Under the pieces are notes generated by a model, which worked only from the letters and a program-made list of their open reading frames with translations, was not told the DNA's origin and ran no database searches. From contig JAFSAM010000077.1 in assembly GCA_017441005.1 (NCBI GenBank), forward strand, positions 6,443 to 70,442: a stretch of DNA of 64,000 nucleotides. The letters are read 5' to 3'. Numbering within the stretch: position 1 is the stretch's first letter; the number at the start of each line of letters is the position of its first letter. The translations under genes were made by a program, and so were the position numbers. The DNA is from Clostridia bacterium. GTDB taxonomy: Bacteria > Bacillota > Clostridia > Oscillospirales > CAG-272. Positions 29,248 through 63,590 of this stretch are shown in pieces.

Positions 29248-29295
29248 GGACACATCATAAGGGTAGATCCCCAAAATGATGTGTCCGTATTTTTT
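29248..29295 (+). terminator. H-family conserved hairpin, copy H1
   Basis: GGACACATCAT (29248-58), loop, ATGATGTGTCC (29276-86), then a T-rich tract. Confidence 0.85.
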
Positions 29296-29383
29296 TAGAA
29301 AAAGTTTTTTGGCTTACTCTGATTAAGCGGAATAAGTTTATTTTTTAACGGTTATTTGCCAACTTTTTTAAAAGGGCTGCAGG

Positions 29384-30223
29384 TTAAGCTTTACCTGCAG
29401 CGCCTACTAAATTGATTTTATTTAAAGCCATTGCTTTAACCGATTCAATAGGTTTTTTCATAAAAATGTCAACGGCAAGGCTTCTGTCGGGGTCATTTAA
29501 AGTTTCAAGCACACCTGAGGCAAATGAGCAACAAACGTCTGTACCGATATTCATTTTGCGTACCCCCGCTTTGATAGCAGCTTTTACTTGGTCATCGGGA
29601 ATACCGGTGCCGCCGTGAAGAACAAGGGGGATGCCTCCTGTTGCCTCTCTTATAGCTTTTATTCTCTCGATATCGAGGCGGGGCGTTTTTTTGTAATGAC
29701 CGTGGGCATTTCCTATGAGCACGGCGAGACAGCAAACACCCGTTTGCTTTACAAATTCCGCGGCTTCGGTGGGGTCTGTGAATTCTTCTATAACGTCGTC
29801 GTTGGCGCTGCCGACGTGGCCGATCTCTCCCTCGACGCCGACGTTTATATAATTGCAGATGTCAACTATGCGTTTGGTTGCCGAAACATTATCGCTGAAC
29901 GAGTGAACAGAGCCGTCAAACATAATGCCGGTCGCGCCCCAATAAAGGATCCTCTGGACCTCTGCCTCTGTTGCCCCGTGATCAAGGTGGAAGCAAACGG
30001 GCACGCTTGCCTTTTTTGCCGCCGCCAAAACAACGGGAGCGATATAGTAGCCCACCTCTTCATTGATAAGACGCGGATATACCTGAATGATCACCGGCGC
30101 TTTTGCCTCTTCTGCGGCGCTGATCACGCCCATGACGGTTTCAATGTTATATACGTTGAATGCGGGAACACAGTATCCGCCTTCCTCTGCCATTCCAATA
30201 ATTTGCTTTAAAGTTACTAACAT
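29384..30223 (-). CDS. class II ketose-bisphosphate aldolase family protein (fructose/tagatose-bisphosphate aldolase-like)
   Basis: 'CVPAFNVYN', 'FHLDHG' and 'LVLHGGTGIP' motifs. A GGAGGA RBS precedes the ATG at 30223. Confidence 0.85.
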   Translation of the reverse strand: MLVTLKQIIGMAEEGGYCVPAFNVYNIETVMGVISAAEEAKAPVIIQVYPRLINEEVGYYIAPVVLAAAKKASVPVCFHLDHGATEAEVQRILYWGATGIMFDGSVHSFSDNVSATKRIVDICNYINVGVEGEIGHVGSANDDVIEEFTDPTEAAEFVKQTGVCCLAVLIGNAHGHYKKTPRLDIERIKAIREATGGIPLVLHGGTGIPDDQVKAAIKAGVRKMNIGTDVCCSFASGVLETLNDPDRSLAVDIFMKKPIESVKAMALNKINLVGAAGKA

Positions 30224-30429
30224 TTTATTCCTCCGGATCATTATTGTATTTTTGTAATATTATATCTGACATAAACCGCTGATACAATGTATTTTTAGAA
30301 ACGGTTATTGTATTTTTTGGTATTATTGTGTGAATGTATATGAAGTTTGAATAAAACGGGAAGAGGTGTTGACTGACATTGCAAAAGTAGATGATTTGGT
30401 AAAAATATTAACAAATTGAAACAAAAGTG

Positions 30430-30457
30430 TTGAAAAAAATAATCGGAGTGATATAAT
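30430..30457 (+). promoter_or_regulatory. candidate sigma-A promoter upstream of the coiled-coil/signal peptidase/pilus genes
   Basis: TTGAAA (30430-35), a 16-nt spacer with TG, then TATAAT (30452-57). Confidence 0.5.
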
Positions 30458-30509
30458 ATAATTAATAAGTAAGATTATCTATCGGGACTAAAAGGAGGAG
30501 TGGGTTAAA

Positions 30510-30953
30510 TTGACTGATAAAGAGTTAAAGTCATTGAGCCGTCGAGAGCTGCTTGAGGTGCTGATAGTTCAAATGGAAGAAAACCAAAAATTGACCGAAC
30601 GGCTTGAGCAAGTCGAAAAGGAACTTAACGACAAAACAATAAGAATAGAGAAGTCGGGGTCCATAGCGGAAGCTTCGCTGAGACTTAATGATATTTTCGA
30701 TAAGGCGGAGGCTTCGGCGGCATTGTATCTTGAAAACATAAAAAGGCTTGAAAAAGAGGCGGAGGAAAAGGCGGAAAAGCTTATCCGAGATGCGGAAGAA
30801 GAAAGCCGACGGATGGTGAAGCACGCAGAGAATATGTTCAACACGCTTCCCAAATTAAAAACAATAGCTGATATGGAAGAGAAAGAATTTGTTTTCGACG
30901 AAAAAACAAACGATAAAGAGGAAAATGATAAAGAAGAGCAAGAAAACGGTTAA
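30510..30953 (+). CDS. coiled-coil protein of unknown function
   Basis: 147 aa, heptad-rich and E/K-rich. An AGGAGG RBS lies upstream. No enzymatic motif was found. Confidence 0.6.
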   Translation: MTDKELKSLSRRELLEVLIVQMEENQKLTERLEQVEKELNDKTIRIEKSGSIAEASLRLNDIFDKAEASAALYLENIKRLEKEAEEKAEKLIRDAEEESRRMVKHAENMFNTLPKLKTIADMEEKEFVFDEKTNDKEENDKEEQENG

Positions 30954-31573: not shown

Positions 31574-34500
31574 ATGAAGGACAATATGGTCGCGAGAGTG
31601 TCGGAATACAAGAAAAAGCGGTCGCGCAGAAAAATGTGGTACAGAATAGTGACCTGTATGGCTGCTATTGTCGTTTTCGTTACCACGTATGCTCTTATCC
31701 TGCCTGTAATAACATTGAACAAGAACGTGTGCGGTCTTACAGAGCATACCCACACGGATGAATGTTACAATGAAGCTAACGAATTGTTGTGCGAGCTTAC
31801 GGAGCACATTCATACGGATGAGTGCAAGGGGGCTGAGCTGACCGACGGCGAAATGCAACAGGTCGACACCGTTATACAAAAGATCGATGCCCTCCCGAGT
31901 GCCGATGTGATCGAAAATACGCTGCTTGGCTATGACGAGTCGGGTGATATGGATTCGTATGAGACCTATTTTGCAGAGGTTCAGCCGGACATTTTGGAAG
32001 TATATAGAGAATATGACACATTATCCGTTGAACAGAAGGCTTACGTCGAAAATGCTTCCAAGCTTATGGAGCTTGAGTGGATATGGTCGGTGGCGGTGTA
32101 CGATAGCGGAGATTCATCTACCATAGGTGACGTTCTCGACGGAGACTATGCATATTTATATGACGTAAGACTCAAGGAGAACGCCTCCGAAAACAGATAC
32201 CCCTCTACGGGAACGGCTCCCTTCGATGCCGATGACGCGGCGGGAAATGACACAGGGGCCGATAATTTGATCGTCAGAACGTATGATACCGTTTCGTATA
32301 CGGTTGAATTTTATACGGCATTGAGAAAAGAGGTCGTGGACGATCACATATCCGGATATAAGACGGGACGCATTTATTTTGAATTTATTCTTCCTTTAAG
32401 CGAGGAGGAGGCACAGTTTGAGGTCGAATCGATGCTGTGGCTCAAATCCTCACAGAATATAAAGTACGAGCTTGTGACCGTTGACGGAAAGCAGGTGCTT
32501 CGCGGAAGCTATATGCTGGTAGGAAACGCGACCAACCCCGCGGCGATAGGTGCAAGCCAAAACGAGACTGTAGTCGTTGTACGTGCCCTTCGTATGCATA
32601 ACGGCGAGAAGATCAAGCCGGACATTACATTGTGGCTTGAATATAACGAGGTTGGTACGACCTACGTCAACAATATTCCGCAGACTATAGTAACAGGCTC
32701 GGGGGCTGTCTGCTCGAAGACCGACAGCGATTCGACGGCACACGGTGCGGAATACAAAACCGTAGAAATACCCGAGGTTACCGTATCGGCGGCTCCAATG
32801 TATAACATAACGGTAGTCCAGGGTGACACTTCAAGAAACACATTGGTTGGAGCTTTTGACTTTTCAAAGGGTAATTCCCAAGCAGTAAACAAGAGCGCGG
32901 ATTACGGCATCATATATGGCAGAATGAGCGGATACGGCTTGAGAATCGAGATATGCGGAAAGAAAGGTCAGGGATTGCGAGGCGTCGAATTACCCGACGA
33001 GAACACCCCTATAACCTTTGATATCGGAATATACTCTACCTATAAATACTACGATGAAGAGCAAGGCAAAAACATAACGCTGGAAAAAGACGGCATTGCC
33101 GACTATCAGCCGTTGATATGGATGGTTACCGACAACGATTCGACGTCGGGCGCGCAGGGCAGAGCACCCGCGACCTACAATGCTTACATTACCTCTGTTC
33201 CGTTGAACAGGAAGACTTCACTCCCTGTCGATTGGTCATATAACCGTTGCTATACGGGCGGTACTTGGACACCTGCTGACAAGCAAGGTGAAATCGATAC
33301 CGTATCTGTTACGGTATCCGGGTTTAAGCTTGGCGGATATGAGGAGTTGGGCGGCGGATTGCACTTTCCGTATCTTGATGCGGCGGATGCGAAAACGTCG
33401 GGAGCGAGATACTACAATCCCAACAACATAAGTCATTATTGGGAGATCGAGCAGGGTATCTTCTCTGCCGGTGAGTTGTGGATAATGCAGCCGTACAACA
33501 GCATTGAGGACGGCACATATATAAGCGAGAAGATCGGTTACGAGGGACAGTACAGCACTTATATAACCCTTTCTAATCTGAATATGAAGAGCGAAGGCGG
33601 CACGGTGGTAACTACAGAGGACCAGACGAATACCACTGACGATACCAAGATGTTCAGCCGTTATATGGTAAGCAAGGGTCACATAAAGGCGTGGGTAGTT
33701 TACCTTAAATACAATACAAGAGTTTGGAACCAAACATTGACGGACGGCGCTTACCAGACAAATGCCGACAGCGACTGGGCTGTTGCAGGTCAAGGTGTCA
33801 CCGTGAACACCGTCATAGAGCATATGGACAACGAGGGAGTATATCTCGGAATTGCCTATGACGTACTGTTAAAATGGGACGATGACTATTTCGAGCCTGA
33901 CGGAGACACATCTGATGACTACTCGATAACGGGATATACCAGATCCGGTCAGACGACAAAGCTGCTGTGGGCGGCTAAGCCCGACGGTACGGGATGGTCT
34001 GATGTCGATAACGATGAAGAAATGAAAAGGTATACCGTGGACGACCTGGTGTTTTACAGCAGTCTTTCCGACCTTAAGGCTTCGGGGGCTGTGTGTGTAG
34101 GTGCTTTGGCGGAATACAGAGGTATACAGCATACGGGACTTCGAAATATACACGTATACATAGATGGAAAGATCAAGCAGGATTGTCCCGTAAATCAGGT
34201 CTATATGTTGGTGGCAAACAGATATGCCTGGAGAAAGACGGACGTCGCAAAGGACGTTGCCGCATATTACGGCATAGACGAAAATTCGTTACACACAATA
34301 ACCGAAGAGCAATACTCGTATTACGCGCACAACGTATTCCCGACAAGGGATCCGGGAAAGGCTTCGCAGTCGAATTATCTCGGAACGAAAAAGATGCTTG
34401 ACGAGACGCACACGATAATCGTAAACTATCCCGAAACCTATTGGCGCCAGGATTACTATAAGACCAATGCGGGAAGCACGACGTCATACTCGGAGGATAA

Positions 34501-36412
34501 CAAGATGTCCGCCCTCGCATCGAAGGCGGTATACAATGAAACGGGATATCACACCGGATACGGCTCGTTCTGGTATCAGGACTCCTGTTTGATCATTCCT
34601 TATGAATCCACGGTCAACAAGAGCGTGGCGCAAACGGAGGGCTCGGGAGAGTTAAAGACCGTATATGATATGAACCAAAACCAGCGAGTGATCGACTACG
34701 CGATTTTTGCAAGGATAGACAGGAAGCTGGGAGAGGGAGTATCCTCGGCGGGCATTCTTGAAACCGTAATCTATATTGAAGATACCATACCTGCAGGTAT
34801 GACATATATACCGGGATCTGCATATTTGGGCGGCACTTATGCTCAGGATCCTCTGCATCAGCAGCAAGGTACGGTGACGAACGGCTTGCAAGAGTCGGAA
34901 ACCATGCAGTCGGCAGCTGCTTACTTTGTAAGAGAAACGCTGACGGTTTATTCCGACGGTACTACGACGGTGAGATGGAGGTTCCCCGTTACGGCTGATT
35001 CGTCAATGGCGATCTGGTCGGATACGCTGAGATATTCGTGCTATATCGGAACTCCCGGAAACGAGGAAACCGACGTAGTCCACGACCAGCAGCTTACAAA
35101 CTCGGTAAAGATCTGGTCTGCCGGTGAGGCAAAAAGAACCTTCAAGGTAGATTTCGGAAACCTTGACAGTTACGGCATAAAGATCCAGAAGATGGGTGCG
35201 GTATCCCTTTCAAAGCTTTCGGATCAATTGGTCGTAGACAAGGGCGCCGATATGGGCTTTACCATGAACGTCGGTAACAACGGAAGCACGGCTCAAACCG
35301 GTACGATCATCGTCGAGACGCTTCCCTATAACGGATATAACGGAACAAGCTTCAACGGGAAGCTTGTGATAACAGAGTTTTCCGCGGGTACTGTCGACAA
35401 CAGTACAGCCTCGGATGCATTGCTCAGCGGATTTAATTTCTACTATACAACAGATCCGTCATATGCGGGCAAGGTCAGCGATCAGCTGGTCGGTGAAGAT
35501 TTCACTAATACGTCAATATGGACTCCTCTTGTGAAGAGTTCTTCCGCAAACAACGTTGACGGTCGACCGTTTGGACTGTTTACCGATTCATCCGGCAACA
35601 GCTTCCCGTCGGCAGTCGATCAGACAAATCAGATAGTGTTGATCGCGGCTGTCGGTAATTTGCCGGCAGAAAAAACCCTTAAAATGCATATTACACTTTC
35701 GCTTCCCAACGGTGTGGCGGAGAACAAGCTTGTAAACTTCCTTTCTCAGGGAACTCTCAGATCTCAGGCACAGTCCCAGATAGTAAACAGAAATATCGAG
35801 GGCTTGACCTGGATCGATGATAACGCAAACGGTGCGCGAGCAGAAAACGAAGTGCTTATTTCGGGAGTGACGGTCACGCTGAAAAAGTATAACGTGCTTA
35901 AAAGCGCATACGAAAACGTATGCTATCCCGGAACTACTGAGCCCATTGTGATAAAGACCGGACAAAGGGTAAGCGTACAGAGCGGAGGAAGCTATTACAT
36001 CGAGACCTATGAGGCGGGAAAATACTTATTTACCGATCTGTCGGCAGGAACCTACTCTGTTGTATTCAGCGACGGAACGGGAGAGGGTATCATCTCACCG
36101 TATCTGGCATCGCCGCAGAATTATGTGGGCGATGACACCATAGACTCGGATGCGAGAGCGGTTTACGTAGACTCAAAGCACAGTGCGATCTCGTACACCG
36201 TAATAGAGGGTATCGAGATGAAGCCTGCGGGCCAGTTGACTTACGGCTCCGACTTTTCGAGAAACAATGACAGCGGCTTCTATTTGAGAGGTCCGCTTCT
36301 TCCCACCACGGGCGGAACGGGTCATGAAACGTATATTTTGGGCGGAGGACTGTTGATGGTAACAGCGGTTCTGTGTCTATTATATAAAAAACGCAGAAAG
36401 GAGGACACCTAA
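31574..36412 (+). CDS. 1612-aa LPxTG-anchored surface protein (candidate pilus tip adhesin)
   Basis: N-terminal TM/signal anchor. Two 'C-x-LTEH-x-HTDEC' motifs. An SdrD-B/Cna-B-like C-terminal region ('GLTWIDDNANG...YLFTDLSAGTYSV'). C-terminal sorting signal 'LPTTGGTG', a hydrophobic stretch, then 'KKRRKED'. Confidence 0.85.
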   Translation: MKDNMVARVSEYKKKRSRRKMWYRIVTCMAAIVVFVTTYALILPVITLNKNVCGLTEHTHTDECYNEANELLCELTEHIHTDECKGAELTDGEMQQVDTVIQKIDALPSADVIENTLLGYDESGDMDSYETYFAEVQPDILEVYREYDTLSVEQKAYVENASKLMELEWIWSVAVYDSGDSSTIGDVLDGDYAYLYDVRLKENASENRYPSTGTAPFDADDAAGNDTGADNLIVRTYDTVSYTVEFYTALRKEVVDDHISGYKTGRIYFEFILPLSEEEAQFEVESMLWLKSSQNIKYELVTVDGKQVLRGSYMLVGNATNPAAIGASQNETVVVVRALRMHNGEKIKPDITLWLEYNEVGTTYVNNIPQTIVTGSGAVCSKTDSDSTAHGAEYKTVEIPEVTVSAAPMYNITVVQGDTSRNTLVGAFDFSKGNSQAVNKSADYGIIYGRMSGYGLRIEICGKKGQGLRGVELPDENTPITFDIGIYSTYKYYDEEQGKNITLEKDGIADYQPLIWMVTDNDSTSGAQGRAPATYNAYITSVPLNRKTSLPVDWSYNRCYTGGTWTPADKQGEIDTVSVTVSGFKLGGYEELGGGLHFPYLDAADAKTSGARYYNPNNISHYWEIEQGIFSAGELWIMQPYNSIEDGTYISEKIGYEGQYSTYITLSNLNMKSEGGTVVTTEDQTNTTDDTKMFSRYMVSKGHIKAWVVYLKYNTRVWNQTLTDGAYQTNADSDWAVAGQGVTVNTVIEHMDNEGVYLGIAYDVLLKWDDDYFEPDGDTSDDYSITGYTRSGQTTKLLWAAKPDGTGWSDVDNDEEMKRYTVDDLVFYSSLSDLKASGAVCVGALAEYRGIQHTGLRNIHVYIDGKIKQDCPVNQVYMLVANRYAWRKTDVAKDVAAYYGIDENSLHTITEEQYSYYAHNVFPTRDPGKASQSNYLGTKKMLDETHTIIVNYPETYWRQDYYKTNAGSTTSYSEDNKMSALASKAVYNETGYHTGYGSFWYQDSCLIIPYESTVNKSVAQTEGSGELKTVYDMNQNQRVIDYAIFARIDRKLGEGVSSAGILETVIYIEDTIPAGMTYIPGSAYLGGTYAQDPLHQQQGTVTNGLQESETMQSAAAYFVRETLTVYSDGTTTVRWRFPVTADSSMAIWSDTLRYSCYIGTPGNEETDVVHDQQLTNSVKIWSAGEAKRTFKVDFGNLDSYGIKIQKMGAVSLSKLSDQLVVDKGADMGFTMNVGNNGSTAQTGTIIVETLPYNGYNGTSFNGKLVITEFSAGTVDNSTASDALLSGFNFYYTTDPSYAGKVSDQLVGEDFTNTSIWTPLVKSSSANNVDGRPFGLFTDSSGNSFPSAVDQTNQIVLIAAVGNLPAEKTLKMHITLSLPNGVAENKLVNFLSQGTLRSQAQSQIVNRNIEGLTWIDDNANGARAENEVLISGVTVTLKKYNVLKSAYENVCYPGTTEPIVIKTGQRVSVQSGGSYYIETYEAGKYLFTDLSAGTYSVVFSDGTGEGIISPYLASPQNYVGDDTIDSDARAVYVDSKHSAISYTVIEGIEMKPAGQLTYGSDFSRNNDSGFYLRGPLLPTTGGTGHETYILGGGLLMVTAVLCLLYKKRRKEDT

Positions 36413-36470
36413 CTCTTTGAAGCGTTTATCCCTAAAACAAAAAAAATTAATTATAAAAAAGGAGAAAACC

Positions 36471-38021
36471 ATGAAAAACATCAAAAAAATCGCCGGCATT
36501 TTGCTGGTAGCCATTATGCTTATGGCAATGACAGTTAACGTTTTTGCTCTTACAGATCAGCAGCTCATCGACCAGTACGGAGATGTATTTGGCGAAAACT
36601 CTATCCAGGATGGTCTTGATCATATCGAAGACATTGCTCCCGGAAAGAGAGGTTTGCTCTACATCAATGGCACGATCCAAGGTCAGAAGTACAGACTTTA
36701 CACTATCGCATCCCTTGAAAGCTGGAACGGAACAACCTATTCTTACAAAGTAAACCCCAAGTGGGCAGCTTTCTTCGCTGATGGCGCTGAAGGCGCTGCT
36801 TATGCAAACGTAGATGCTCAGGGTTACTTCACATGGAAGACAGGAACCGATGAAGCTACCATGAAGGAGTTCACTCAGAAGGCATTGGCATATGCTAAGG
36901 CAAATTATACGTCTTCGAATATGGACGAAGCTGAAATTACAGCTGACGGAACAGGCTATGCAAGATGGTATGCAAAGTACGGCTATCACCTTATCGATTC
37001 CGATACAGGTACATTGGCTTCTTTGACAACAAATGATCCTCACCAGGTTATTACTCTTAAGAACAAGGCTCCCACAGTAACTAAGACTGTAAAAGATGGC
37101 GATGCTCAAGGCGCGTCCAATACTGCAAGCATCGGTGACACAGTAGAATACACAGTAACGATTACTGCTCAGGCAGGCGCGCAGAACTATATTTTGCACG
37201 ATACAATGTCCGCAGGTCTTACTTTTGACGCAGATTCCGTAAAGGTTTATAACGGCTCTGTAGCAGACGGCAATCTCATTACAGCGGGTGCTGCTACCTA
37301 TTCCGTTGCCGGCGGCACCAAAATGGGCAGCGACACAGAAGACTGTACATTCCACGTTGTATTTGCACAGGCATTCTGCGATACTTTGATCGCAGACCAG
37401 AAGATCATCGTAACATATTCCGCAACACTTAACGACGAAGCTGTTATCGGCGGTGTAGGCGAAAACAACGAAGCAAAGATCACTTACGGTGAAACAAGCC
37501 AGATCGAAACCGCAGAAACTAAGACCAACACATTTACATTCGAGCTTCCCGTATTTAAGTATACAGGCGATCCCAAGACTGCATTGGCAGGTGCAACCTT
37601 CTCCATCAAGGATGAAGACGGCAATCTTATCAAGGCAATTCAGACCGAAGGTGCGGCTGATGGCGCTGTAGAGGACGTATATCTTGTAAGCGATGATGCT
37701 GCAGCAGTAACACAGTTTACAACAGATGCTACAGGTAAGTTTACTGTTCAGGGTCTTGCTGCAGGCACATATACACTTACCGAGGTTACAGCTCCTCAGG
37801 GCTACAACAAGTGCGTTGACGTTGAGATCGAGATCGCAGAAGACGGAACAATTGATATAGCAAATGCTGAAGGCTATGTTGAGATCGAAAACAAGTCCGG
37901 TTCTATCCTTCCTTCGACAGGTGGTATGGGTACAACGATATTCTACGCTGTCGGCGGTTTGCTCGTCGTAGTAGCAATAGTATTCCTTATTACCAGAAAG
38001 AGAATGTACTACAAAGGCTGA
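36471..38021 (+). CDS. LPxTG pilin (candidate major/backbone pilin)
   Basis: Signal peptide MKNIKKIAGILLVAIMLMAMTVNVFA. Cna-B-like 'ATFSIKDEDGN...GTYTLTEVTAPQGY' (E-box-like). Sorting signal 'LPSTGGMGT', a TM segment, then 'RKRM'. Confidence 0.8.
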   Translation: MKNIKKIAGILLVAIMLMAMTVNVFALTDQQLIDQYGDVFGENSIQDGLDHIEDIAPGKRGLLYINGTIQGQKYRLYTIASLESWNGTTYSYKVNPKWAAFFADGAEGAAYANVDAQGYFTWKTGTDEATMKEFTQKALAYAKANYTSSNMDEAEITADGTGYARWYAKYGYHLIDSDTGTLASLTTNDPHQVITLKNKAPTVTKTVKDGDAQGASNTASIGDTVEYTVTITAQAGAQNYILHDTMSAGLTFDADSVKVYNGSVADGNLITAGAATYSVAGGTKMGSDTEDCTFHVVFAQAFCDTLIADQKIIVTYSATLNDEAVIGGVGENNEAKITYGETSQIETAETKTNTFTFELPVFKYTGDPKTALAGATFSIKDEDGNLIKAIQTEGAADGAVEDVYLVSDDAAAVTQFTTDATGKFTVQGLAAGTYTLTEVTAPQGYNKCVDVEIEIAEDGTIDIANAEGYVEIENKSGSILPSTGGMGTTIFYAVGGLLVVVAIVFLITRKRMYYKG

Positions 38022-38161
38022 TAGACGATAGTTTTTAGGTGTGCGAGGAGAGCTCTTGCAGCTCTCCTCCTAACCTAACCGGAAAAGTGTCAGAATGATA
38101 ACTACAGCACTTTTCTTTTACCGTTGACATAGAAATATGCAACGGCAAGGAGGGCCCTTCA

Positions 38162-50940: not shown

Positions 50941-51027
50941 TTTTTATTCAAGTTTTTAGCACGCCTTTTTTTCAAAAAGCGACCGTAGTTTCTTTTACTC
51001 TTTCGACATCGCAGTGCTTTTTTTCTT

Positions 51028-53790: not shown

Positions 53791-54876
53791 TTAAATGTCT
53801 TTCGACTGACCTTGATCTATCCAGATTCCGGTGCCGTCGGACATAATTGCGAATTGATAGGCTTCTACAAGGCTTTGAATAGTGCGGCTTAAAGCTTTTC
53901 GTTCTATAAAAAGCTCGTAGGGAGGATTCTTGAGTTCCTCCAAAATATCTTTTTGTCTCAGGTGGTGTTTGCTGTCGGATTTCGTTTTTAAAATTGAATA
54001 TACAAAGAGTGGCAAAAGACTTTTTTGTGAATTGCCTTTTTTGGGACGGTAGAGCTCGTCGAGCTCTTCTTCAGTCATCTGTTCTTCTCGTTCAATTTGA
54101 AGGCGTCTGGTGTTGCTGACAGTTTCTCGTGATATTCCATAACGGTTTAAGAGCATTGCGGCGACAAGCTGTTTTGCCTCTGTGAAAACTACTGCATACG
54201 GGGCATTTAGGAGCATCAAGCGATATAGCCTTCTGGAACGAATGATCACATCGTATGCGCAAATTTTTCCGCCGATACGAGCTTGTGCCTGTGAATAGAG
54301 GTCAGAGACGGATTTGTGATAGTATTCTTTTTCATCGTCGGATACTGAAACATTTAGGTAGTCTGACAAAAAAGAACGTTCAAAATCATCGAGAGGTGCT
54401 CCTTTCGAGAGGTTTCCGGCAATTACCTTGACGTATTCGGATACGTCCATTCTGTCTTCTATATCTTGAAGCCTTTCTATGTCAAATTTATCATACGAAA
54501 AAGGTCGAAGATAATCGTTCCAAAACTTAAAAAACGTATCGTCATTAACTTGTTTTTTGAAATCTTCAGTTGATTGAATATCGAGCAGATCCCCAAGCTT
54601 TTCCGCAAAAAAACGAATAATTGCAACATGAGCCTGCGCTTCGTCTATGAAGTATTCATAGTCTGCAAGATTCCAATTTACCAAGCAACGGTAGCTGTCA
54701 TTTTCGTCTGTATGCAGGTCTTCGCTGAAGCCTTGTCCCGGGGCGTCATAGTGCCAACCGGGAATATATAAAACTCCGTCTTCGTCGGTACGCTCAAACA
54801 TTAGAGTAATGAAATCTTTAAGCTCTAATTCGGGATCATCAAAGGAATAAAATGTTTTGTTTGCTATGTTTGACAT
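53791..54876 (-). CDS. retron-associated protein of unknown function (candidate effector), acidic N-terminal ~280 aa + C-terminal wHTH-like region
   Basis: MSNIANKTFYSFDDPELELKDF... AAAGGAGA RBS 6 nt before the ATG at 54876. C-terminal 'LRQKDILEELKNPPYELFIERKALSRTIQSLVEAYQFAIMSDGTGIWI' resembles an HTH_11-type winged helix. No nuclease, ATPase, TIR or TM motif was recognised. Confidence 0.7.
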   Translation of the reverse strand: MSNIANKTFYSFDDPELELKDFITLMFERTDEDGVLYIPGWHYDAPGQGFSEDLHTDENDSYRCLVNWNLADYEYFIDEAQAHVAIIRFFAEKLGDLLDIQSTEDFKKQVNDDTFFKFWNDYLRPFSYDKFDIERLQDIEDRMDVSEYVKVIAGNLSKGAPLDDFERSFLSDYLNVSVSDDEKEYYHKSVSDLYSQAQARIGGKICAYDVIIRSRRLYRLMLLNAPYAVVFTEAKQLVAAMLLNRYGISRETVSNTRRLQIEREEQMTEEELDELYRPKKGNSQKSLLPLFVYSILKTKSDSKHHLRQKDILEELKNPPYELFIERKALSRTIQSLVEAYQFAIMSDGTGIWIDQGQSKDI

Positions 54877-54951
54877 ATTGTTTCTCCTTTTCATATATTA
54901 CAAAAAGAGTATATCAACTTAGTTGCACCATATTAGGTACAACCACTTTTT

Positions 54952-54981
54952 ATTATATAGGATTCGATAATAAAAAGTCAA
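54952..54981 (-). promoter_or_regulatory. candidate sigma-A promoter for the retron-associated gene
   Basis: On the minus strand: TTGACT (54981-54976, overlapping the RT stop codon), 18 nt, TATAAT (54957-54952). An imperfect palindrome GTTGCACC-ATATTA-GGTACAAC at 54922-54943 follows it. Confidence 0.5.
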
Positions 54982-56030
54982 CTATTACAATGGGTATCAA
55001 AAGATTTAGACAAATTTTCTTTAGCTGCTTGAAACCATTTATTTTCAGGTTCAATTTGTAAAATGTAGTTAACTTTTCCGATAAGGTGACATTTATATCG
55101 AGCGGTATCCCATTTTCCATTTTCGAAAAAGTCATTCTTTTTTCCGTATTTCATACTGTCTTCAAGACCGAATTTTAATGCGTAATAAACATCTTGGCGA
55201 AGTGTTTTTTTATAGTCTGACGGAATAGACACTTTTTTGTTAACGCATAATCCTGTTACTGTTTGGCGCGATGAAAAGAATATGTATTTTGTTTTTTTCT
55301 TATTTACCTGAAATCCCCATCGGTTGAGCATATCTTCAATTTTGTAAGAAAGAACAACAAGAGGATAGTCGGCGGAAAAGGTTAAATCATCACAGTACCG
55401 TGTGTAGACTATGCCGCGTTCGTTACACCAAAATCCTATGTGCTCGTCAAAAGATTTCATCACAAGATTGGATAATGCGGGAGATGTAGGAGCGCCTTGT
55501 GGCAATACACCGTCTTTTGTGCAAAGGGAAGTAAGAATAACCCCGCATTGAGTTGGGAAAAGAGTGGAGGGGAAAGCTGAAGATAGAACTTGATGAAAGG
55601 TAATAGAACTAAAAAAGTCGGAAATATCCATTTTTAATAAATAAAGATGATTGATATGAGGAGCAGCATTATCTTTAAGGTTTTTTCCTTTTTTATATGC
55701 CATAGCATAAGGCGATGTTTCTGCTTTTGATATGATGTTTTGAAGTATTTTCTTTTGGACTTTTTTTAGTTTTCCGTTGGGGGAATGAATGATCCTGAAG
55801 CCGTTGCTTCTTTTGGGGATTCGTATTTCTTTATAACAAGAGTCTGCTTTCTTTGATAAAGCAAAGAGTTCTCCTGTTGTTGTGCCGAGAGTGTCGGCAA
55901 GAGATTGCAGTTCTTTTGATATGCCTTTATTGCTTTTTTGTTTTTTTGAAGAATGTGAATTGGCAAATATTCCAATGAGTTTTTTTACAAAGACTTGAAT
56001 GTTTCTGATAATGTTTGATGCTTTTTTCAT
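54978..56030 (-). CDS. retron-type reverse transcriptase
   Basis: 'IRIPKRSNGFRIIHSP', 'NAAPH' (retron NAxxH), 'LPQGAPTSPALSN', 'RYCDDLTFS' (YxDD) and 'RQTVTGLCVN' (retron VTG motif). A GGAGGA RBS precedes the ATG at 56030. Confidence 0.9.
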   Translation of the reverse strand: MKKASNIIRNIQVFVKKLIGIFANSHSSKKQKSNKGISKELQSLADTLGTTTGELFALSKKADSCYKEIRIPKRSNGFRIIHSPNGKLKKVQKKILQNIISKAETSPYAMAYKKGKNLKDNAAPHINHLYLLKMDISDFFSSITFHQVLSSAFPSTLFPTQCGVILTSLCTKDGVLPQGAPTSPALSNLVMKSFDEHIGFWCNERGIVYTRYCDDLTFSADYPLVVLSYKIEDMLNRWGFQVNKKKTKYIFFSSRQTVTGLCVNKKVSIPSDYKKTLRQDVYYALKFGLEDSMKYGKKNDFFENGKWDTARYKCHLIGKVNYILQIEPENKWFQAAKENLSKSFDTHCNS

Positions 56031-56059
56031 TGGTTTTCCTCCATTTTGGTAACAAAAAC

Positions 56060-56243
56060 CCCTTTGCAGTACAAAATGACTTGGGAAAAATCGACGAGAG
56101 TCTGAGTTACCGGAGGTAACTCAGCGGCTCGATGGAGATTTTTTTCAAGCACGCGGCTATGCCGCACACGAGGGAATAAACACCGATCAACGACTCGCTG
56201 ACCGTCTTGAAACTTTAATCAAGATGTACTCTACTGCAAAGGG
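56060..56243 (-). ncRNA. retron msr-msd non-coding RNA template
   Basis: 12-bp inverted repeats CCCTTTGCAGTA (minus strand; plus 56232-56243) and TACTGCAAAGGG (minus strand; plus 56060-56071) lie 160 nt apart. A G directly follows a1 (plus coordinate 56231), as in the Ec86 'TTA-G' context. Three short msr-like hairpins are followed by a long msd-like stem CTGAGTTAC/GTAACTCAG (56102-56124). The region ends 29 nt upstream of the RT ATG. Confidence 0.8.
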
Positions 56244-56329
56244 ATTCTTATAATGTTGTTTGTATTTTAACAAAATCAATGTACCGAATTCGGTTCATTG
56301 ATTGTTAGAAGTAAAAAAAACAAAAAATA

Positions 56330-56379
56330 TTGGACACATCATAAGGATAAACTCCAAAATGATGTGTCCAACTTTTTTG
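56330..56379 (+). terminator. H-family conserved hairpin, copy H7
   Basis: TTGGACACATCAT (56330-42), loop 'aaggataaactccaaa', ATGATGTGTCCAA (56359-71), then T6. Confidence 0.85.
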
Positions 56380-56383: not shown

Positions 56384-58237
56384 TTAATTAGTTGCAAGTT
56401 TTCTTTGCTTACTTTCTTTCCTTAAAAAAAGTAGGTTTCCTATTGAGCATTTTGCGTTGCCGTAAAGGTGGGGGAGCGAGTCTGCGCCTACTGTGGAGAG
56501 AACGTCAAATCTAACATATCTTGCTTGTGTGTTTTCAAATGTAACGACGGTTTCACCGCCAAAAGTGCGAAAAATACCGTCTGCTTTTTTTTCGTACTTT
56601 GTTCCGTCAATGCTCGTATATATGGCAAAGGCGGTTGGGAGAGTTGCTGTGTAATCATCTTCACGCCATTTTGTGCGAAGTTCGGGTTGGGTTTTCGGAG
56701 GCTTTTCAACCGGTCTTGGATAGTACCCAATTGCACTGACCGTATGCAATTGTTGCATATCGATTACAATTGATGCTTTGGTGTTCTTTCCTTCCCATAC
56801 GTTGTATACGTCTCCTTCAATGGCGGCAGAGGCATCTTCGCCTGTGAGTATATCAACTGCTGTTGCGTTGCTTAGGTCTATGGCGGATAGTTTTGATTCG
56901 GTATATTTGTCAAATTTACGTCCCGTCCATACGGGCATCGACCAAGTTCTTTTGCCCTCACCGTCTACAAAACGCAGATAGAAATACCGTGCGGTATCTG
57001 ACTGTATTTCAAAATCAAAACTTGAAGAAATATTTGTTGTTTTCAGCAAAGTCTTTCCACCGTCGGATATAACGGCACATTCAACGGGAACTGTCATTTC
57101 ATCTTTTGTAAAATATGAAAGTTCAACGTGGAATCGGTAGGTGTTTGCATAATCAAGGTCGGCGGGAGCGGCTTTTCCATTTACGGTATATCGAAGTTTT
57201 ACGTTTCCGCTTTCGGTTGCATAAAACCTATTATTGCGGAGAGCATCGATAAATGCTTCTCGACTCTTTTCTCGAGCGAGTAAAACCGTTTTCGCTCTCA
57301 TAAAACCGTATCCTCTTTCAGGGCCGTGGGAGTCTGTCGATGCGACTGAACTTACACGAAAGCCGCTATCCAGTGCAAGTGAATAGTTAAATTCATGCAT
57401 AAGATTTTCCCCGATAGCTCTGCCGTTAATCGTTTCGATTCCTCGGACAGCATGTATCATTTCGGGAGTATTGTTTTTATGAAAACAGAAATTCCAGATT
57501 CCCTTATGTCCGATTCCCACTGTACAAGGATGGGCAAAAATTGCGATGGGGGCGGGAGAAGTGCTTATACATTCAAAGAACGGTTTCCAAGAATCTGCAG
57601 AAATATATCCATCTGTGTTGAAAGTAACGATTTCTCCGGAATTTTTGTGAAGAACACCAAAACGGTCGTTTTCCAAAACCGTTACCTCCGATTCTGCTCC
57701 CGGAAGCATAATCACAACGTTCGGCTCTGCTTTTTCGATTTCTACAAAATTGCGGAAGAACTCTGTATCGTTGAGTACGATTGCATGGTCGGACATAACG
57801 CAGAAATCAAGAAGACCTTCGTTTTTGATTTGTTTGATAAAATCACGCTGGAACTCTGACGTGCGGTTGATAAATTCTTCGTGATTATGAATTTTGGTAG
57901 TGTGATTATGAAGGTCGCCTATATAGTAGTTTAATTTATCGTCAGAACTTGCTTTTTTGTTCTCGGTTACCGTTACGAAGCAGGTGTATTGAACACCGCC
58001 CATCGTTGCACTTACGGTTGCATTTCCAACCTTTTTCAATATAAGCAGAACACCGTTGTTGAAGCACATCGGTTCATTACCAGAGAAGGAGTGAAGTGAG
58101 ACTGCATCTGAATCGGATTCCCATTTTATATCTGCTTTGGCCAACTCATTATGTTTTTCGCTGTCAAAACCTATGTGGAGCGGTAACACATCTCCTACAA
58201 ACGATGTTATGTGATTTTGGGATAATGAAACAGTCAT
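56384..58237 (-). CDS. PHP/CehA-like metallo-hydrolase with N-terminal Ig-like region and C-terminal discoidin (F5/8 type C)-like domain
   Basis: MTVSLSQNHITSF... after a TAGGAGGA RBS at the ATG 58237. Motifs 'GDLHNHT' and 'ASTDSHG'. The C-terminal ~150 aa are discoidin-like. The last 12 codons (RKESKQRKLATN) are encoded by a dispersed repeat module. Confidence 0.7.
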   Translation of the reverse strand: MTVSLSQNHITSFVGDVLPLHIGFDSEKHNELAKADIKWESDSDAVSLHSFSGNEPMCFNNGVLLILKKVGNATVSATMGGVQYTCFVTVTENKKASSDDKLNYYIGDLHNHTTKIHNHEEFINRTSEFQRDFIKQIKNEGLLDFCVMSDHAIVLNDTEFFRNFVEIEKAEPNVVIMLPGAESEVTVLENDRFGVLHKNSGEIVTFNTDGYISADSWKPFFECISTSPAPIAIFAHPCTVGIGHKGIWNFCFHKNNTPEMIHAVRGIETINGRAIGENLMHEFNYSLALDSGFRVSSVASTDSHGPERGYGFMRAKTVLLAREKSREAFIDALRNNRFYATESGNVKLRYTVNGKAAPADLDYANTYRFHVELSYFTKDEMTVPVECAVISDGGKTLLKTTNISSSFDFEIQSDTARYFYLRFVDGEGKRTWSMPVWTGRKFDKYTESKLSAIDLSNATAVDILTGEDASAAIEGDVYNVWEGKNTKASIVIDMQQLHTVSAIGYYPRPVEKPPKTQPELRTKWREDDYTATLPTAFAIYTSIDGTKYEKKADGIFRTFGGETVVTFENTQARYVRFDVLSTVGADSLPHLYGNAKCSIGNLLFLRKESKQRKLATN

Positions 58238-58354
58238 AAAAATCCTCCTATGCAAATCTGTCTGTATTTTATCACAATGTATGGTTTTTGTAAAGGGAAA
58301 AAGATAGGGCAAGCACGCTGTTGTCGAGTATGTAATAACACTTTGCAAGATAAC

Positions 58355-58462
58355 ATTTTTGCGTTGTTTTCCTTTTAAACCGAGGCTTTTCATCAACTTT
58401 TGAACTGTCTTGTGGTTAAGAACATAGCCTTTGTATGATATCAATCGTATAAACGTATACAA
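58355..58462 (-). pseudogene. IS3-family transposase (OrfB) remnant
   Basis: 'SYKGYVLNHKTVQKLMKSLGLKGKQRK' matches the conserved 'G..VNHKRV.RLM.ELGL..R.R' segment of IS3-family OrfB. Only about 36 codons remain, and they are read in frame into the long track ORF 56384-58462. Confidence 0.5.
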
Positions 58463-61212: not shown

Positions 61213-61226
61213 TAGGAAATAGGAAT

Positions 61227-61272
61227 AAAGGACACATCATCAGGAAAAACCAAAATGATGTGTCCTTTTTTT
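61227..61272 (+). terminator. H-family conserved hairpin, copy H8
   Basis: AAAGGACACATCAT (61227-40), loop 'caggaaaaaccaaa', ATGATGTGTCCTTT, then T7. Confidence 0.85.
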
Positions 61273-61306
61273 GGGGGGATTCAACAGCGGTGTCCGATGG
61301 ACAAGT

Positions 61307-62092
61307 TTATTTTTTCATTAATTCGTTTTTCAGGTTTATCGGTGGAATGCCGAAAAAATCTTTAAATACCTTTGAAAAATAACCGTAGTTTTCATATCCC
61401 AAGCACAATGCTATTTCGGTTAATGACATAGCATCGTTCGTAAGCATATTTTTTGCGAGTGTGACTTTTTGCTTGTTGATAAACTCCGAAACCGTCATAC
61501 CGAGTTCTCTTTTGAAAAGCTTTGCAGTATATTCCTTTGTAACGTGCAGAAATTGGCTTATGTCAGAGAGCGACAAGGATTGTGTTATGTTGTCATTGAT
61601 ATATTTAATTGCATTTAAGACGTGAATGTTTTTTGTTGAATAATTCATAGAGTCGAACAGCTCGGCAAGCACGCAGTTAAAAAGATTCGGCAGGATTGTG
61701 TTGACTTTGCTGTTGCCATATGAGGGGGATGTCAGATGGTCAGCTGCTCTGTAATACGTGTACGGATATACCTCGAGCAGTTTTCTTATGGTTTGATTGA
61801 CTGCATTTTTGAAAAACAGATTTGATGGTATGTCGTTTCCTTTTGTGGTTGTGTAATTAAATATAACGTAGTGAGCTAATCCTTCGCTGGGAAACCTTTT
61901 TCTGACAGTTCCTGGTACCAGAAGCATAGCATCATTTGGGTGAAGAACAACCTCTTCCCCATTTACTATATAAGTTATTGTTCCTTCCAAAACAAAGGTG
62001 AGATGATAAAAGTTTATTTTTGCGGTTTCAATCTTTTTGTGTTTGTATCCCTTGTGGTTGCAAAAATAAGAAAAATTTTTTACGGTATACAC
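61307..62092 (-). CDS. AraC family transcriptional regulator (paralog of 43689-44477; divergent from P-family paralog 4)
   Basis: Aligns along its length with the 43689 regulator: 'INFYHLTFVLEGTITYIVNGEEVVL', 'AHYVIFNY', 'GYENYGYFSKVFKDFFGIPP'. GTG start at 62092, 8 nt after GGAGAA, by analogy with the paralog. The track start is 62179. Confidence 0.75.
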   Translation of the reverse strand: MYTVKNFSYFCNHKGYKHKKIETAKINFYHLTFVLEGTITYIVNGEEVVLHPNDAMLLVPGTVRKRFPSEGLAHYVIFNYTTTKGNDIPSNLFFKNAVNQTIRKLLEVYPYTYYRAADHLTSPSYGNSKVNTILPNLFNCVLAELFDSMNYSTKNIHVLNAIKYINDNITQSLSLSDISQFLHVTKEYTAKLFKRELGMTVSEFINKQKVTLAKNMLTNDAMSLTEIALCLGYENYGYFSKVFKDFFGIPPINLKNELMKK

Positions 62093-62271
62093 GATACGGT
62101 TTCTCCACAGATTAATATAGTATAAAAAACTGTAACCAACAGAATAATCTGGTTTATTGAAAAAGAGCTTTTCATACACTATTATATAGTAAAGATAAAA
62201 ATATTGTCAAGTATAAAATAATGAATGCCTTTTGAGTTAAACGTAAGTTTTTATAGCGGGAGGGGAATTAA

Positions 62272-63516
62272 ATGAAAAAGGTGTATTTTCTTTTATTGAT
62301 GCTTATATTTTTGTTTCTTGTTGTATCTTGTGGCAAAAAAGAAGAAAATTCAAAGGAGGAGATTACGGTGAAGGAGGAAATAAAAGAAACGGTTTTGGAG
62401 ACTGATAAAGAGGAAATCGATCTTCCTGTTGATCCCGATGATTATTTTAAATTGGTGACGTTTGAGCTTCCCGATGATTTCAGAAAAGCCGCGGTTGAGT
62501 ATATGCGTAAGCAGTCAAGTATAGCGTGGACTCCCGAAAAAACCTTTAAAACAGGAAGGCAAAACGAGAATTGGGGCTTTGAGCTGACATACGAAGAGGG
62601 AAAGGTTTATACAGGTCTTTTGTATTCCACAAGAAAGGCATCTGTTGACGAATTTCAGCTTACTCTCGCAAAAAATGGAGGCAAATACACCTCGGAAAAG
62701 TATGATTATAGCTTTCCCTTGGGGGTAGAATGCAACACGTCCATTACACATTCATTGCAGCAGTTTACAAATGCGGTGACAGGCAAAGCAGAAACACTTA
62801 TGCCCAGTTATGCGGACTTGTTCGGTGGCGTAGTAGTGGGCGAGTATACTGTTCCCGATGGGGTGCGCCAAACAGCAAAGATTATATCGGCAAATACTCC
62901 CGAGGTGATGTATCAGGCATATTCGCAGTTGGATGTGGGTGATATTATAATCACGAAAGATGAGGATAAAAAAGTAAACCATTTGAGAATGATTGTGGAA
63001 AAGCCGGTTGTTGTTACGACAGCGTCAGGTAAGATCAATCCAAACAGAAGCTATGTGGTTACTATAGAGCAGACAGATACTTTTGATAAAACAAGAACAG
63101 ACGGTGTAAATACAACGTGGTGGGTAGACCATCAATATACATTATCAAAGCTTCTTGAAAAGAACTACGTTCCCGTTTCGGTTGAGGCATACAGAACCGG
63201 AGTGGGGGTTGTTCCGTATATAGGGCTTGACACCGAGATTACGGCAGGAATACTCGAAAAAGGCACTCTTACGGGTACAATAACATCAAATTATCCTATC
63301 AGATTTATTCATATCAATCTTTATAAAAAAGACGGTACCCTTGTGAGCAACGTGGTCTATAACGGCGAATTTGATACGAGAAAAGTCAATTTGAGAAAAT
63401 ATGCTTCCGATATATTTACCGACGGTATGACCGAGGGAGAATATACTCTTGAAGTATTGGCGGGGGTAAGCCGCGGTTATGCGGAAATAGCGAAAGTAAA
63501 CTTTATATACGGGTAA
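62272..63516 (+). CDS. P-family lipoprotein, paralog 4
   Basis: Lipobox 'FLVVSCG'. Blocks 'SIAWTPEKTF', 'GVECNTSITHSLQQ', 'VNHLRMIVE', 'SYVVTIEQTDTFD' and 'TTWWVDHQYTL'. Confidence 0.8.
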   Translation: MKKVYFLLLMLIFLFLVVSCGKKEENSKEEITVKEEIKETVLETDKEEIDLPVDPDDYFKLVTFELPDDFRKAAVEYMRKQSSIAWTPEKTFKTGRQNENWGFELTYEEGKVYTGLLYSTRKASVDEFQLTLAKNGGKYTSEKYDYSFPLGVECNTSITHSLQQFTNAVTGKAETLMPSYADLFGGVVVGEYTVPDGVRQTAKIISANTPEVMYQAYSQLDVGDIIITKDEDKKVNHLRMIVEKPVVVTTASGKINPNRSYVVTIEQTDTFDKTRTDGVNTTWWVDHQYTLSKLLEKNYVPVSVEAYRTGVGVVPYIGLDTEITAGILEKGTLTGTITSNYPIRFIHINLYKKDGTLVSNVVYNGEFDTRKVNLRKYASDIFTDGMTEGEYTLEVLAGVSRGYAEIAKVNFIYG

Positions 63517-63539
63517 ATGTATTATAAGGATAAAAAATA

Positions 63540-63590
63540 TTGGACACATCATGGATAAAAACTCCAAAATGATGTGTCCAACTTTTTTTG
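63540..63590 (+). terminator. H-family conserved hairpin, copy H9
   Basis: TTGGACACATCAT, loop 'ggataaaaactccaaa', ATGATGTGTCCAA (63569-81), then T7. Confidence 0.85.

Follow-up and report, generated by a model that had tools for sequence, protein, structure and literature searches.

A 64,000-nucleotide (nt) stretch of a Clostridia genome (contig JAFSAM010000077.1, positions 6,443-70,442; called the window here) carries nine copies of a short conserved hairpin, all in the same orientation, and this raises the question of what spreads and maintains such an element. An earlier note on this DNA had linked the hairpins to the enzymes associated with repetitive extragenic palindromic (REP) sequences, the REP-associated tyrosine transposases (RAYT or RayT). 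We analyzed the window, the contig around it (73.5 kb in all), and loci with the same hairpin in other species. Our favored reading, to which we give a probability of about 0.6, is that insertions would gather at a hot spot, the 3' end of the operon that closes with the GGGtGRT gene in Oscillospirales-type gut Clostridia, and that the hairpin would be the end-piece of this hot spot, serving both as a single-strand recombination site and as a bidirectional terminator.

Nine copies of one hairpin in a single orientation

When one mismatch is allowed, the 11-nt arm GGACACATCAT matches at 21 sites in the window, against 0.68 expected, and 18 of these pair up as nine arm-loop-arm hairpins; the full arm-gap-arm pattern occurs five times exactly, against 0.00 expected by chance. 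These nine hairpins (c1 to c9; Table 1) lie at the sites given in the earlier note and share one orientation, as it had stated, although the starts that it listed for copies 6 to 9 were off by 1 to 3 nt. We also searched the window with a covariance model (R1), which was built from 20 copies, partly the window's own nine, and run unfiltered at full sensitivity. The model returned the nine at 49.5 to 69.3 bits and otherwise only two weak look-alikes (22 and 19 bits; Table 1), both in the core DNA that makes up the first 29 kb. It found no strong copy in that part of the window, which bears out the claim that no clear copy occurs there. The copies are about 46 nt long, all intergenic, and stand as singlets at least 1.1 kb apart. 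A gene 3' end adjoins every one: five have convergent genes on their two sides and four have tandem minus-strand genes, and all nine are directly downstream of a minus-strand gene, the same direction as that of the GGGtGRT gene discussed below.

An alignment of the copies gave a common order of A-tract, stem, loop ending in AAA, second arm, and T-tract, with the A-tract followed by (A/G)TT on the left and AAY preceding the T-tract on the right. The description of the copies as one sequence family, rather than independent ordinary terminators, was upheld. The stem had been described as almost invariant and 11 to 13 bp long; its length is 14 to 15 bp when the covarying outer pairs are included, since three to four outer pairs beyond GGACAC covary. 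Because the cross-species loci were picked for matching the stem core exactly, its invariance among the aligned copies is in part a product of the selection. One of the outer pairs is GC in 57 copies, AU in 40, GU in 5, and unpaired in none, and the pair adjoining the internal loop is UA in 64 and UG in 38. Inward of the stem are an internal loop, an inner stem of 3 to 5 bp that is variable and shows compensating changes, and a loop that is A rich (U rich on the opposite strand). The sequence of the outer stem is constant, while that of the inner stem drifts.

The two strands of the hairpin are not equivalent. We refer to the better-folding sense as F, which is the minus strand for all nine copies in the window. 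Across many genomes, the strand opposite the "plus" form of the earlier note is the better-folding one in 127 of 143 copies, with 194 G.U pairs on the better-folding strand and 23 on the other over the 143 copies, and with mean fold energies for the two strands of -24.1 and -21.2 kcal/mol. In the window, the minus strand had the better R1 score in 9 of 9 copies (49.5 to 69.3 bits versus 26.9 to 45.5 bits), and a T-to-C change in an arm of c2 retains a G.U pair on the minus strand only. The loop motif is uniform in the nine, as had been noted, but its "plus" orientation is that of the poorer-folding strand. The better-folding strand in the window is also the C-rich one, which does not fit an IS608-like rule.

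The layout of an intrinsic terminator, a stable stem with a U-run straight after it, is present on both strands, and because a T-run directly follows the stem on each, the element makes a good bidirectional intrinsic terminator at the sequence level. We considered a promoter inside the hairpin and rejected it, as there were only weak hexamer matches with poor spacing. No hairpin family in Rfam matched: the whole window at the gathering score gave only a tRNA, and 200 nt around c7, searched at E values up to 10, gave chance microRNA-like matches far below thresholds. A search of the published literature for the stem sequence returned only PCR primers, and searches for RAYT in connection with Clostridia and, separately, for GGGtGRT returned only general RAYT papers and metaproteome lists.

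The array is anchored at the 3' end of GGGtGRT

An exact-pattern scan of one genome per species found at least 120 loci with the hairpin in more than 100 species of gut and rumen metagenome-assembled genomes; the names among the matches listed were Oscillospiraceae, Acutalibacteraceae, Ruminococcaceae, Christensenellaceae, or plain Clostridia. The counts across species that follow are for the matches listed, and the genes in them are simple open reading frame (ORF) calls. Many of these loci are mutually syntenic, and when the neighboring proteins were clustered, one upstream gene dominated: GGGtGRT (PF14057), the last gene of an operon of PTAC, NifU-like, and GGGtGRT genes, which is present in 72 of 120 loci. 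The 118 loci from other species hold 145 hairpins, of which 89 (61%) come after a GGGtGRT stop codon: that of the full gene in 48 cases, of a gene cut by the contig end in 6, and of a short tail fragment only in 35. The median distance from stop codon to hairpin is 79 nt, and for all 89 the F sense is the sense of the gene. We know of no earlier report of GGGtGRT as an attachment site; gut and rumen metaproteome studies reportedly list its protein.

The orientation of the hairpin follows the genes around it. Over the 118 loci, a co-directional gene ends on the upstream side of the F sense in about 72% of cases, with no preference for the other sense, and 13 of 13 multicopy loci have one orientation per locus. 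The suggestion that orientation is tied to replication was rejected: when GC3 skew, the strand skew at third codon positions, was regressed on gene strand and hairpin orientation for 605 genes in the 118 loci, the orientation term was -0.013 (standard deviation, 0.010), so that once gene strand is controlled there is no effect, and in the window 9 of 9 copies are simply downstream of a minus-strand gene.

In this genome, c4 and c9 carry the tail of GGGtGRT (Table 1), and the real gene was therefore predicted beyond the right edge of the window. The contig confirmed this: PTAC, NifU-like, and GGGtGRT genes lie on the minus strand at a window-equivalent position of 67.0 to 69.4 kb, about 3 kb beyond the edge, and a tenth hairpin stands 52 nt after the GGGtGRT stop codon. 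The ten hairpins of the same orientation make up one head-to-tail array that runs 38 kb downstream from GGGtGRT. In the 73.5 kb of this genome that were examined, 12 hairpins lie within 41 kb around this gene, and the remaining 29 kb of the window have none. In this stretch, the copies are not distributed like REP elements but make up a single array with a fixed anchor.

The 3' untranslated region (UTR) that accompanies the tail fragment at c9 is near-identical to that of the real GGGtGRT gene of this genome, and the UTR shared by the two contains a generic GC hairpin with a T-run (63598-63625 in c9) that is terminator-like. At c4, the UTR allele differs from the genome's own and resembles that of another locus, L009; the regions of c4 and c5 form a direct repeat of 101 to 120 nt. 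An apparent small ORF upstream of c4 and c9, in the F sense, turned out to be the last ~90 nt of the GGGtGRT coding sequence (CDS). Because c9 and c4 retain both the CDS end and the 3' UTR, we infer that the copies arose by duplication of the GGGtGRT gene end during DNA insertion. Comparison of tail, UTR, and hairpin indicates that the copies in the window derive from the 3' region of this gene.

The start of the longest common class of tail is itself of note. This class begins about 94 nt before the end of the gene with GAAATGATGGGTCTC, which is found at 49910-49921 and 63720-63731 (minus strand) in the window and at about 14830 in locus L210. It is alike in 9 of 11 positions to the hairpin arm ATGATGTGTCC, so that the unit of tail, UTR, and hairpin begins and ends similarly. 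This likeness may point to a shared recognition site or be accidental, the odds of the latter being roughly 1 in 100 for that region.

Gene content turns over downstream of GGGtGRT

The modules of the window array are AraC/lipoprotein pairs, sugar enzymes, a retron, a pilus cluster, and a dead RayT gene, each of them closed by one hairpin, and the hairpins lie at the boundaries between modules in a cassette-like layout, as the earlier note had it. In other species we found three layouts: the gene, a hairpin, and an Xer-like integrase (at least 24 loci); the gene, a cassette, a tail fragment, the UTR, and a hairpin (L050, L093, L044, and L102); and the gene, a hairpin, a cassette, a tail fragment, and a second hairpin (L009 and L063). 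The structure of gene, cassette, tail fragment, and hairpin is repeated in dozens of species. The cassettes in these species are 0.4 to 5.7 kb long and hold nothing but cargo, such as the gene for an alpha/beta hydrolase or for a lipoprotein. At 35 joints of the other-species loci, a tail fragment is followed by a hairpin, giving direct repeats of the end of the target gene. The duplicated segment usually begins within the CDS and stops at or just past the stop codon. The left ends of 86 tail fragments cluster at about -94 (20 fragments), -73 (14), and -40 (8), and the right end is the stop codon in 64 of the 86. Since these discrete classes are common to many species, they point to defined breakpoints rather than random decay.

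To obtain a sample that was not biased toward the hairpin, we compared nine contigs that encode an identical GGGtGRT protein. Each has one hairpin, at +18 nt, at +129 nt, or past a 4-kb cassette, and between the hairpin and a conserved Radical_SAM gene the gene content takes at least four different forms, and some of the joints carry tail fragments. The DNA downstream of GGGtGRT thus varies between strains whose GGGtGRT protein is identical. On a larger scale, 47 kb separate the Lactamase_B gene from GGGtGRT here, compared with 8.9 kb in the related species L201, whose GGGtGRT is 98% identical, and the genes in between differ. The site matching the relic hairpin of the window (Table 1) is occupied by a hairpin-RayT-hairpin unit in L201 and, by synteny, by one full hairpin in L101, so that L101 and L201 also differ at a hairpin. 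Because both differ from the window at hairpin sites, the hairpins coincide with synteny breakpoints, which agrees with the proposal in the earlier note.

Mobile DNA also carries this gene end. A GGGtGRT tail is found in 15 IMG/VR viral contigs, at the contig end in several, and one viral contig has two units of tail, hairpin, and integrase. At two other loci, L228 (11000-11076) and L235 (5252-5340), a degenerate second GGGtGRT tail follows directly after the stop codon with no cassette between; this looks like the scar of an excised cassette. Two further ideas about the tails were examined and dropped. The common 3' end and variable 5' extent of the fragments would suit retroposition of the 3' end of GGGtGRT mRNA by the retron reverse transcriptase (RT), which we rejected because the start points are discrete across many species and arrays occur in loci without an RT gene. 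Database GGGtGRT proteins of 430 to 461 amino acids (aa) were considered as tail fusions, and the two examined, P0121 and P0124, proved to have internal duplications unrelated to the tail.

RayT and Xer-like genes beside the hairpin

The earlier note placed one copy 6 nt after the stop codon of a RAYT-like gene, and this is correct: the ORF ends at 47362 and the stem of c3 begins at 47368. The wider link to RAYT stood in part. Full-length RayT genes are bracketed by the hairpin on both sides in L037, in L201, and elsewhere in this contig, but the ORF in the window is a 5'-truncated pseudogene (Table 1) whose first 17 codons are gone and which has an in-frame stop. The left hairpin that flanks intact copies is absent here and the right one, c3, is present, in a placement that matches the geometry of intact hairpin-RayT-hairpin units. 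In L201, the only four hairpins in 20.5 kb are the flanks of its two RayT genes, which are 8 kb apart and encode proteins that are 96% identical; L037 has the same unit, and L202 has the right-hand hairpin only. An intact RayT paralog (48% identical) that lies in this contig beyond the window, at window-equivalent positions 70309-70830, has one hairpin about 42 nt ahead of its start codon and another 1 nt past its stop codon; these two RayT-flanking hairpins, beyond GGGtGRT, are oriented opposite to the array. Two paralog lineages, 48% identical to each other, therefore share a fixed geometry, with one hairpin about 45 nt before the start codon and another 1 to 7 nt after the stop codon. In every unit the two flanking copies score best on the same strand, that is, they are direct and not inverted, and the RayT coding strand is always the poorer-folding strand of the hairpin.

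The RayT proteins have the HUH motif and the motif of the catalytic tyrosine. When their profile was compared with solved structures, Escherichia coli TnpA_REP (4ER8) was the best match (E = 1.2e-8), and IS200/IS605 transposases followed at an E value of about 0.5; the Pfam Y1_Tnp match, at 21 bits, is below its threshold of 23. The unit of hairpin, promoter, Y1 gene, and hairpin, about 650 to 700 bp with both hairpins on the same strand, and the near-identical pair in L201 do resemble an IS200/IS605 insertion sequence. In addition to the distant match to its transposases, the unit differs from that family in that its left and right hairpins have the same sequence and solo hairpins outnumber whole units. 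RayT genes keep syntenic places between species, as in LysR-RayT-GH3 (L202 and L207) and ClpP-RayT (L201 and this contig). Loci chosen for RayT hold two solo hairpin copies in about 127 kb. A few metagenome RayT relatives are flanked by hairpins of other kinds; this shows no more than that flanking hairpins can occur in the family. RAYTs are typically single-copy, housekeeping-like genes flanked by abundant 16-mers, and RAYT Group 1, which is also found in Clostridia, has only about 12 occurrences of its flanking 16-mer (Bertels et al. 2017, PMC5581495).

A different repeat lies inside the RayT ORF. The exact 26-nt inverted repeat GTAGGGGGCGACGTCCTCGACGCCCC occurs at 46964-46989 (plus strand) and 47153-47178 (minus strand), and about 165 nt separate its arms, which are translated as VGGDVLDAP and GASRTSPPT and lie on either side of the HUH motif. 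It is nucleotide-identical in homologs down to about 60% protein identity (L037, L201-L209, L121-L123, and others), was found only inside RayT genes in the data examined, and resembles a GTAG-tagged, GC-rich REP pair. Some distant RayT relatives (L163, L140-143) have similar GTAG hairpins in their flanks.

The second recombinase-type gene encodes an Xer-like tyrosine recombinase; in other species, at least 24 loci have this gene next after the hairpin, and a viral contig has it too. Its best models are XerA, XerC, and XerD, all below their cutoffs, and it scores 49 bits against the integron integrase model TIGR02249, whose cutoff is 265. The 315-aa gene (L005, 2316-3263, and at least 23 other loci; L213, L214) starts 5 to 35 nt past the T-run of the hairpin, a gap too short for a promoter, so that transcription through the hairpin would be needed to express it.

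Proposed mechanism and competing explanations

We propose that the hairpin, folded from one DNA strand, would be the site at which a strand-specific recombinase joins modules. The strand that folds would be the sense strand of GGGtGRT, which retains the G.T or G.U pairs. RayT is the most likely candidate enzyme for events at the level of the hairpin, and tyrosine integrases, such as the product of the Xer-like gene and phage integrases, are probably those that act inside the GGGtGRT tail. Each insertion would duplicate the attachment region, so that the array grows head to tail in one orientation, and the hairpin, with its A-tract, 14- to 15-bp stem, and T-tract, would insulate the modules from each other and from the GGGtGRT operon as a bidirectional terminator. 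Some events probably occur at the hairpin itself, because integration in the tail multiplies tails, yet there are ten hairpins and two tails. As far as we know, a hairpin-bounded cassette hot spot has not been described before in this group; it has features in common with both REP/RAYT systems and the integration arrays found at gene 3' ends.

Several observations weigh against this proposal. Seven of the nine copies in the window have no tail fragment, and their origin by duplication is extrapolated from c4, c5, and c9; in about 20 of the 120 listed loci, the 8 kb covered show no GGGtGRT and no tail fragment; and the variable region of the P0151 clade has no second hairpin, its joints being marked by tail fragments and not by hairpins. 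GGGtGRT loci in four viral contigs have no hairpin. The enzymes fit imperfectly as well: no integrase gene was found in the window array, nor an Xer-like gene in 73.5 kb of the contig; RayT relatives at 69% identity or less are not flanked by the hairpin; and 80 metagenome RayT loci (40 to 64% identity) have no copy of it. Since 73.5 kb of this genome were examined, dispersed copies may exist elsewhere in it.

The closest precedent for RayT involvement is the classical REP/RAYT system (REPtron) of E. coli and Pseudomonas, in which RayT would copy the hairpin throughout the genome, the window would be a dense patch, and the orientation would come from replication-coupled, strand-specific insertion. 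As in REPtrons, the hairpins are short, imperfect, extragenic palindromes at gene 3' ends, the same palindrome is seen bracketing a Y1 HUH gene of TnpA_REP type across several genomes and both paralog lineages, TnpA_REP ranks first among solved relatives, and the RayT gene keeps syntenic positions between species; the single orientation of all 13 multicopy loci would also fit. This explanation is nonetheless improbable, because the copies are local, lack the GTAG tag, and form no REPIN doublets. In the DNA examined, a single array anchored at GGGtGRT, with none in the neighboring 29 kb of core DNA, takes the place of the hundreds of dispersed copies of REP, solo copies are scarce even in loci chosen for RayT, and most hairpins of other species follow GGGtGRT or its tail. 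No CGTC tag is present either, and GTAG is confined to the separate repeat inside the RayT ORF; flanking copies are direct and not inverted, and those beyond GGGtGRT point the opposite way from the array; the stem is common to more than 100 species instead of being species specific; some copies carry part of a neighboring gene, and transposition of the hairpin alone leaves the GGGtGRT sequence on c4, c5, and c9 unexplained; and the skew regression gave replication no role. An integron-like platform, in which the Xer-like recombinase acts in trans, the GGGtGRT tail is the primary site, the hairpin is a bottom-strand attC-like site, and RayT is cargo, is in our judgment unlikely. Like attC arrays, these arrays have one imperfect hairpin per cassette, all pointing the same way, in which the outer stem is conserved, the top varies, and one strand folds better than the other, and an Xer-family gene stands beside the primary site in many species, its closest models being Xer proteins and the integron integrase. 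Cargo-only cassettes, the discrete classes of tail, and a folded strand that is opposite the RayT coding strand, as attC bottom strands would be, point the same way. The picture misfits, however, in integrase type, core-box order, and module content: the recombinase is far below the cutoff for IntI and absent from this array; the stem ends GTTGGAC...GTCCAAY are the reverse of attC RYYYAAC...GTTRRRY (R''-L''...L'-R'); and the modules in the window are multigene, on both strands, with their own promoters and regulators. In addition, the primary site would lie inside a protein-coding gene, and hairpin-RayT-hairpin units occur at sites away from GGGtGRT.

Plain accretion of integrative elements and prophages at the 3' end of GGGtGRT, followed by decay, would make the hairpin a passively copied native terminator and the RayT link a coincidence. 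The staphylococcal cassette chromosome (SCC) elements, which stack at the 3' end of rlmH/orfX in staphylococci, and islands at tRNA and tmRNA genes offer the comparison: there, as here, the 3' end of a conserved gene is the attachment site, gene-end direct repeats stand at the joints, stacking is head to tail, and some units have no recombinase of their own. Tail duplications from about -94 or -73 to the stop codon are like attL/attR repeats, viral contigs end at the tail, and an integrase gene is found beside the site. This array differs from those in its target, in that most joints are a conserved hairpin and not a gene tail, in its small, cargo-only modules, and in the association of an HUH enzyme besides tyrosine recombinases. 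Accretion alone is very unlikely: Campbell-type integration in the tail duplicates the tail and not the hairpin, yet this array has ten hairpins to two tails; the ten modules have no integrase remnants; GGGtGRT here already has a generic terminator before the hairpin; the rough odds that the four hairpins of L201 fall on four RayT flanks are about 1 in 15,000 (1/C(26,4), with about 26 intergenic gaps); and the outer stem is constant while the inner stem drifts. Scarcely tenable is an immobile, shared bidirectional terminator, or a DNA uptake sequence (DUS, or uptake signal sequence, USS) that occurs as inverted pairs. The A-tract, stem, and T-tract found on either strand, a mean fold energy between -21 and -24 kcal/mol, and the constant position at gene ends suit such a role, but the same 46-nt sequence is found with gene-tail fragments at nonorthologous sites in more than 100 species, and its fold is strand asymmetric. 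Single arms outside the nine hairpins are limited to three one-mismatch matches against 0.68 expected, with no exact match, unlike DUS/USS, of which very many single copies would be expected in both orientations and inside genes as well. A more specific form of the proposal that we favor is that the 3' end of GGGtGRT is a dedicated cassette platform, at which RayT as a domesticated HUH enzyme, the resident Xer-like recombinase, or both stack cargo-only modules head to tail and exchange them between species, with the hairpin, folded from one DNA strand, as the recombination site; we hold this form to be possible but on balance doubtful.

Coordinates and further modules of the array

The positions of the hairpins and other features are collected in Table 1. 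The look-alike at the left of the window may be a diverged copy or a chance resemblance.

Table 1. Hairpins, gene-end fragments, and module genes in the window (bit scores of hairpins are from model R1)
Feature	Position	Strand	Details
Look-alike terminator hairpin, GGCACACTTGAT-loop-ATCAAGTGTGCC	12484-12521		22 bits; core DNA
Relic hairpin, AAAAAATGACACG-TTTTTGA-CGTGTCATTTTTT	19941-19969	.	18.7 bits, E = 0.01; right after Lactamase_B gene
Lipoprotein gene	27946-29214	+	Neighbor of c1
c1 hairpin	29244-29290	-	57.8 bits, E = 9.5e-14; distal end of array
Aldolase gene	29384-30241	-	Neighbor of c1
Sortase-dependent pilus cluster	31574-40615	+	Between c1 and c2
c2 hairpin	43519-43565	-	56.5 bits; between GFO/IDH oxidoreductase gene (+) and AraC gene (-)
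Lipoprotein gene	44662-45936	+	Divergent from AraC regulator gene
Decayed RayT gene (Y1 HUH, TnpA_REP-like)	46895-47362	+	tblastn, 91% identical to residues 18-164 of P0005 (172 aa)
c3 hairpin	47364-47411	-	49.5 bits; directly after RayT pseudogene stop (aligned with L201, L037, and L202)
Lipoprotein gene	48463-49611	-	
c4 hairpin	49724-49769	-	55.8 bits
c4 gene-end fragment	49770-49921	-	Last ~88 nt of GGGtGRT CDS (49832-49921, 86% identity to real gene end) plus 3' UTR
DUF6883 and 82-aa protein genes	49928-50519	-	Between c5 and c4
c5 hairpin	50886-50931	-	60.2 bits
c5 plus UTR	50886-50997	-	Hairpin plus ~65 nt of c4-type GGGtGRT 3' UTR
c6 hairpin	53674-53719	-	65 bits; downstream of retron module
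Retron module	53791-56330	-	Bounded by c7 and c6
Retron RT gene	54978-56030		
c7 hairpin	56328-56373	-	69.3 bits; 11 nt past stop of gene at 56384-58462 (-), upstream side of retron module
c8 hairpin	61226-61269	-	60.9 bits; between SASA/Big_2 gene (+) and AraC gene (-)
Lipoprotein gene	62272-63516	+	Divergent from AraC regulator gene
c9 hairpin	63538-63583	-	66.8 bits
c9 gene-end fragment	63584-63731	-	Last ~93 nt of GGGtGRT CDS (63636-63731, frameshifted) plus 3' UTR

The four lipoproteins are paralogs of about 400 aa that match no known family, are 32 to 53% identical, and have invariant Cys and His residues; three of the four genes adjoin a hairpin. We considered these paralogs as a hidden recombinase and rejected this idea. 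Because they are lipoproteins with signal peptides, they are taken to be cargo. The pilus cluster encodes a 1612-aa LPXTG adhesin, a pilin backbone subunit, two sortases, and a Cna-B protein, and is preceded by a signal peptidase gene. The retron RT matches the NCBIfam retron St85 family at 238 bits (cutoff, 235) and the PADLOC model RT_Ec107-like at 376 bits. The 367-aa gene that follows it has no family match and is presumably the retron effector, and the msr/msd RNA would be expected in the ~300 nt between c7 and the RT start. The DUF6883 protein (113 aa) and its 82-aa neighbor have no PADLOC match and may be a toxin-antitoxin-like pair.

Implications

If our reading holds, many uncultured gut and rumen Clostridia would share one chromosomal site for collecting and swapping accessory genes, among them sugar-utilization modules, surface lipoproteins, a retron defense system, and pili. 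The hairpin together with the GGGtGRT tail would provide a sequence handle for strain-variable genes in metagenomes, where such repeats break assemblies at the locus and several contigs end at a tail fragment. RayT-type enzymes, whose cellular role is debated, would gain a concrete and testable candidate substrate outside Proteobacteria. To our knowledge, integrons are essentially absent from this phylum, and the cassette platform, if it exists, would be their functional analogue there. Hairpin-based single-strand recombination for the capture of cassettes may in that case have arisen more than once.

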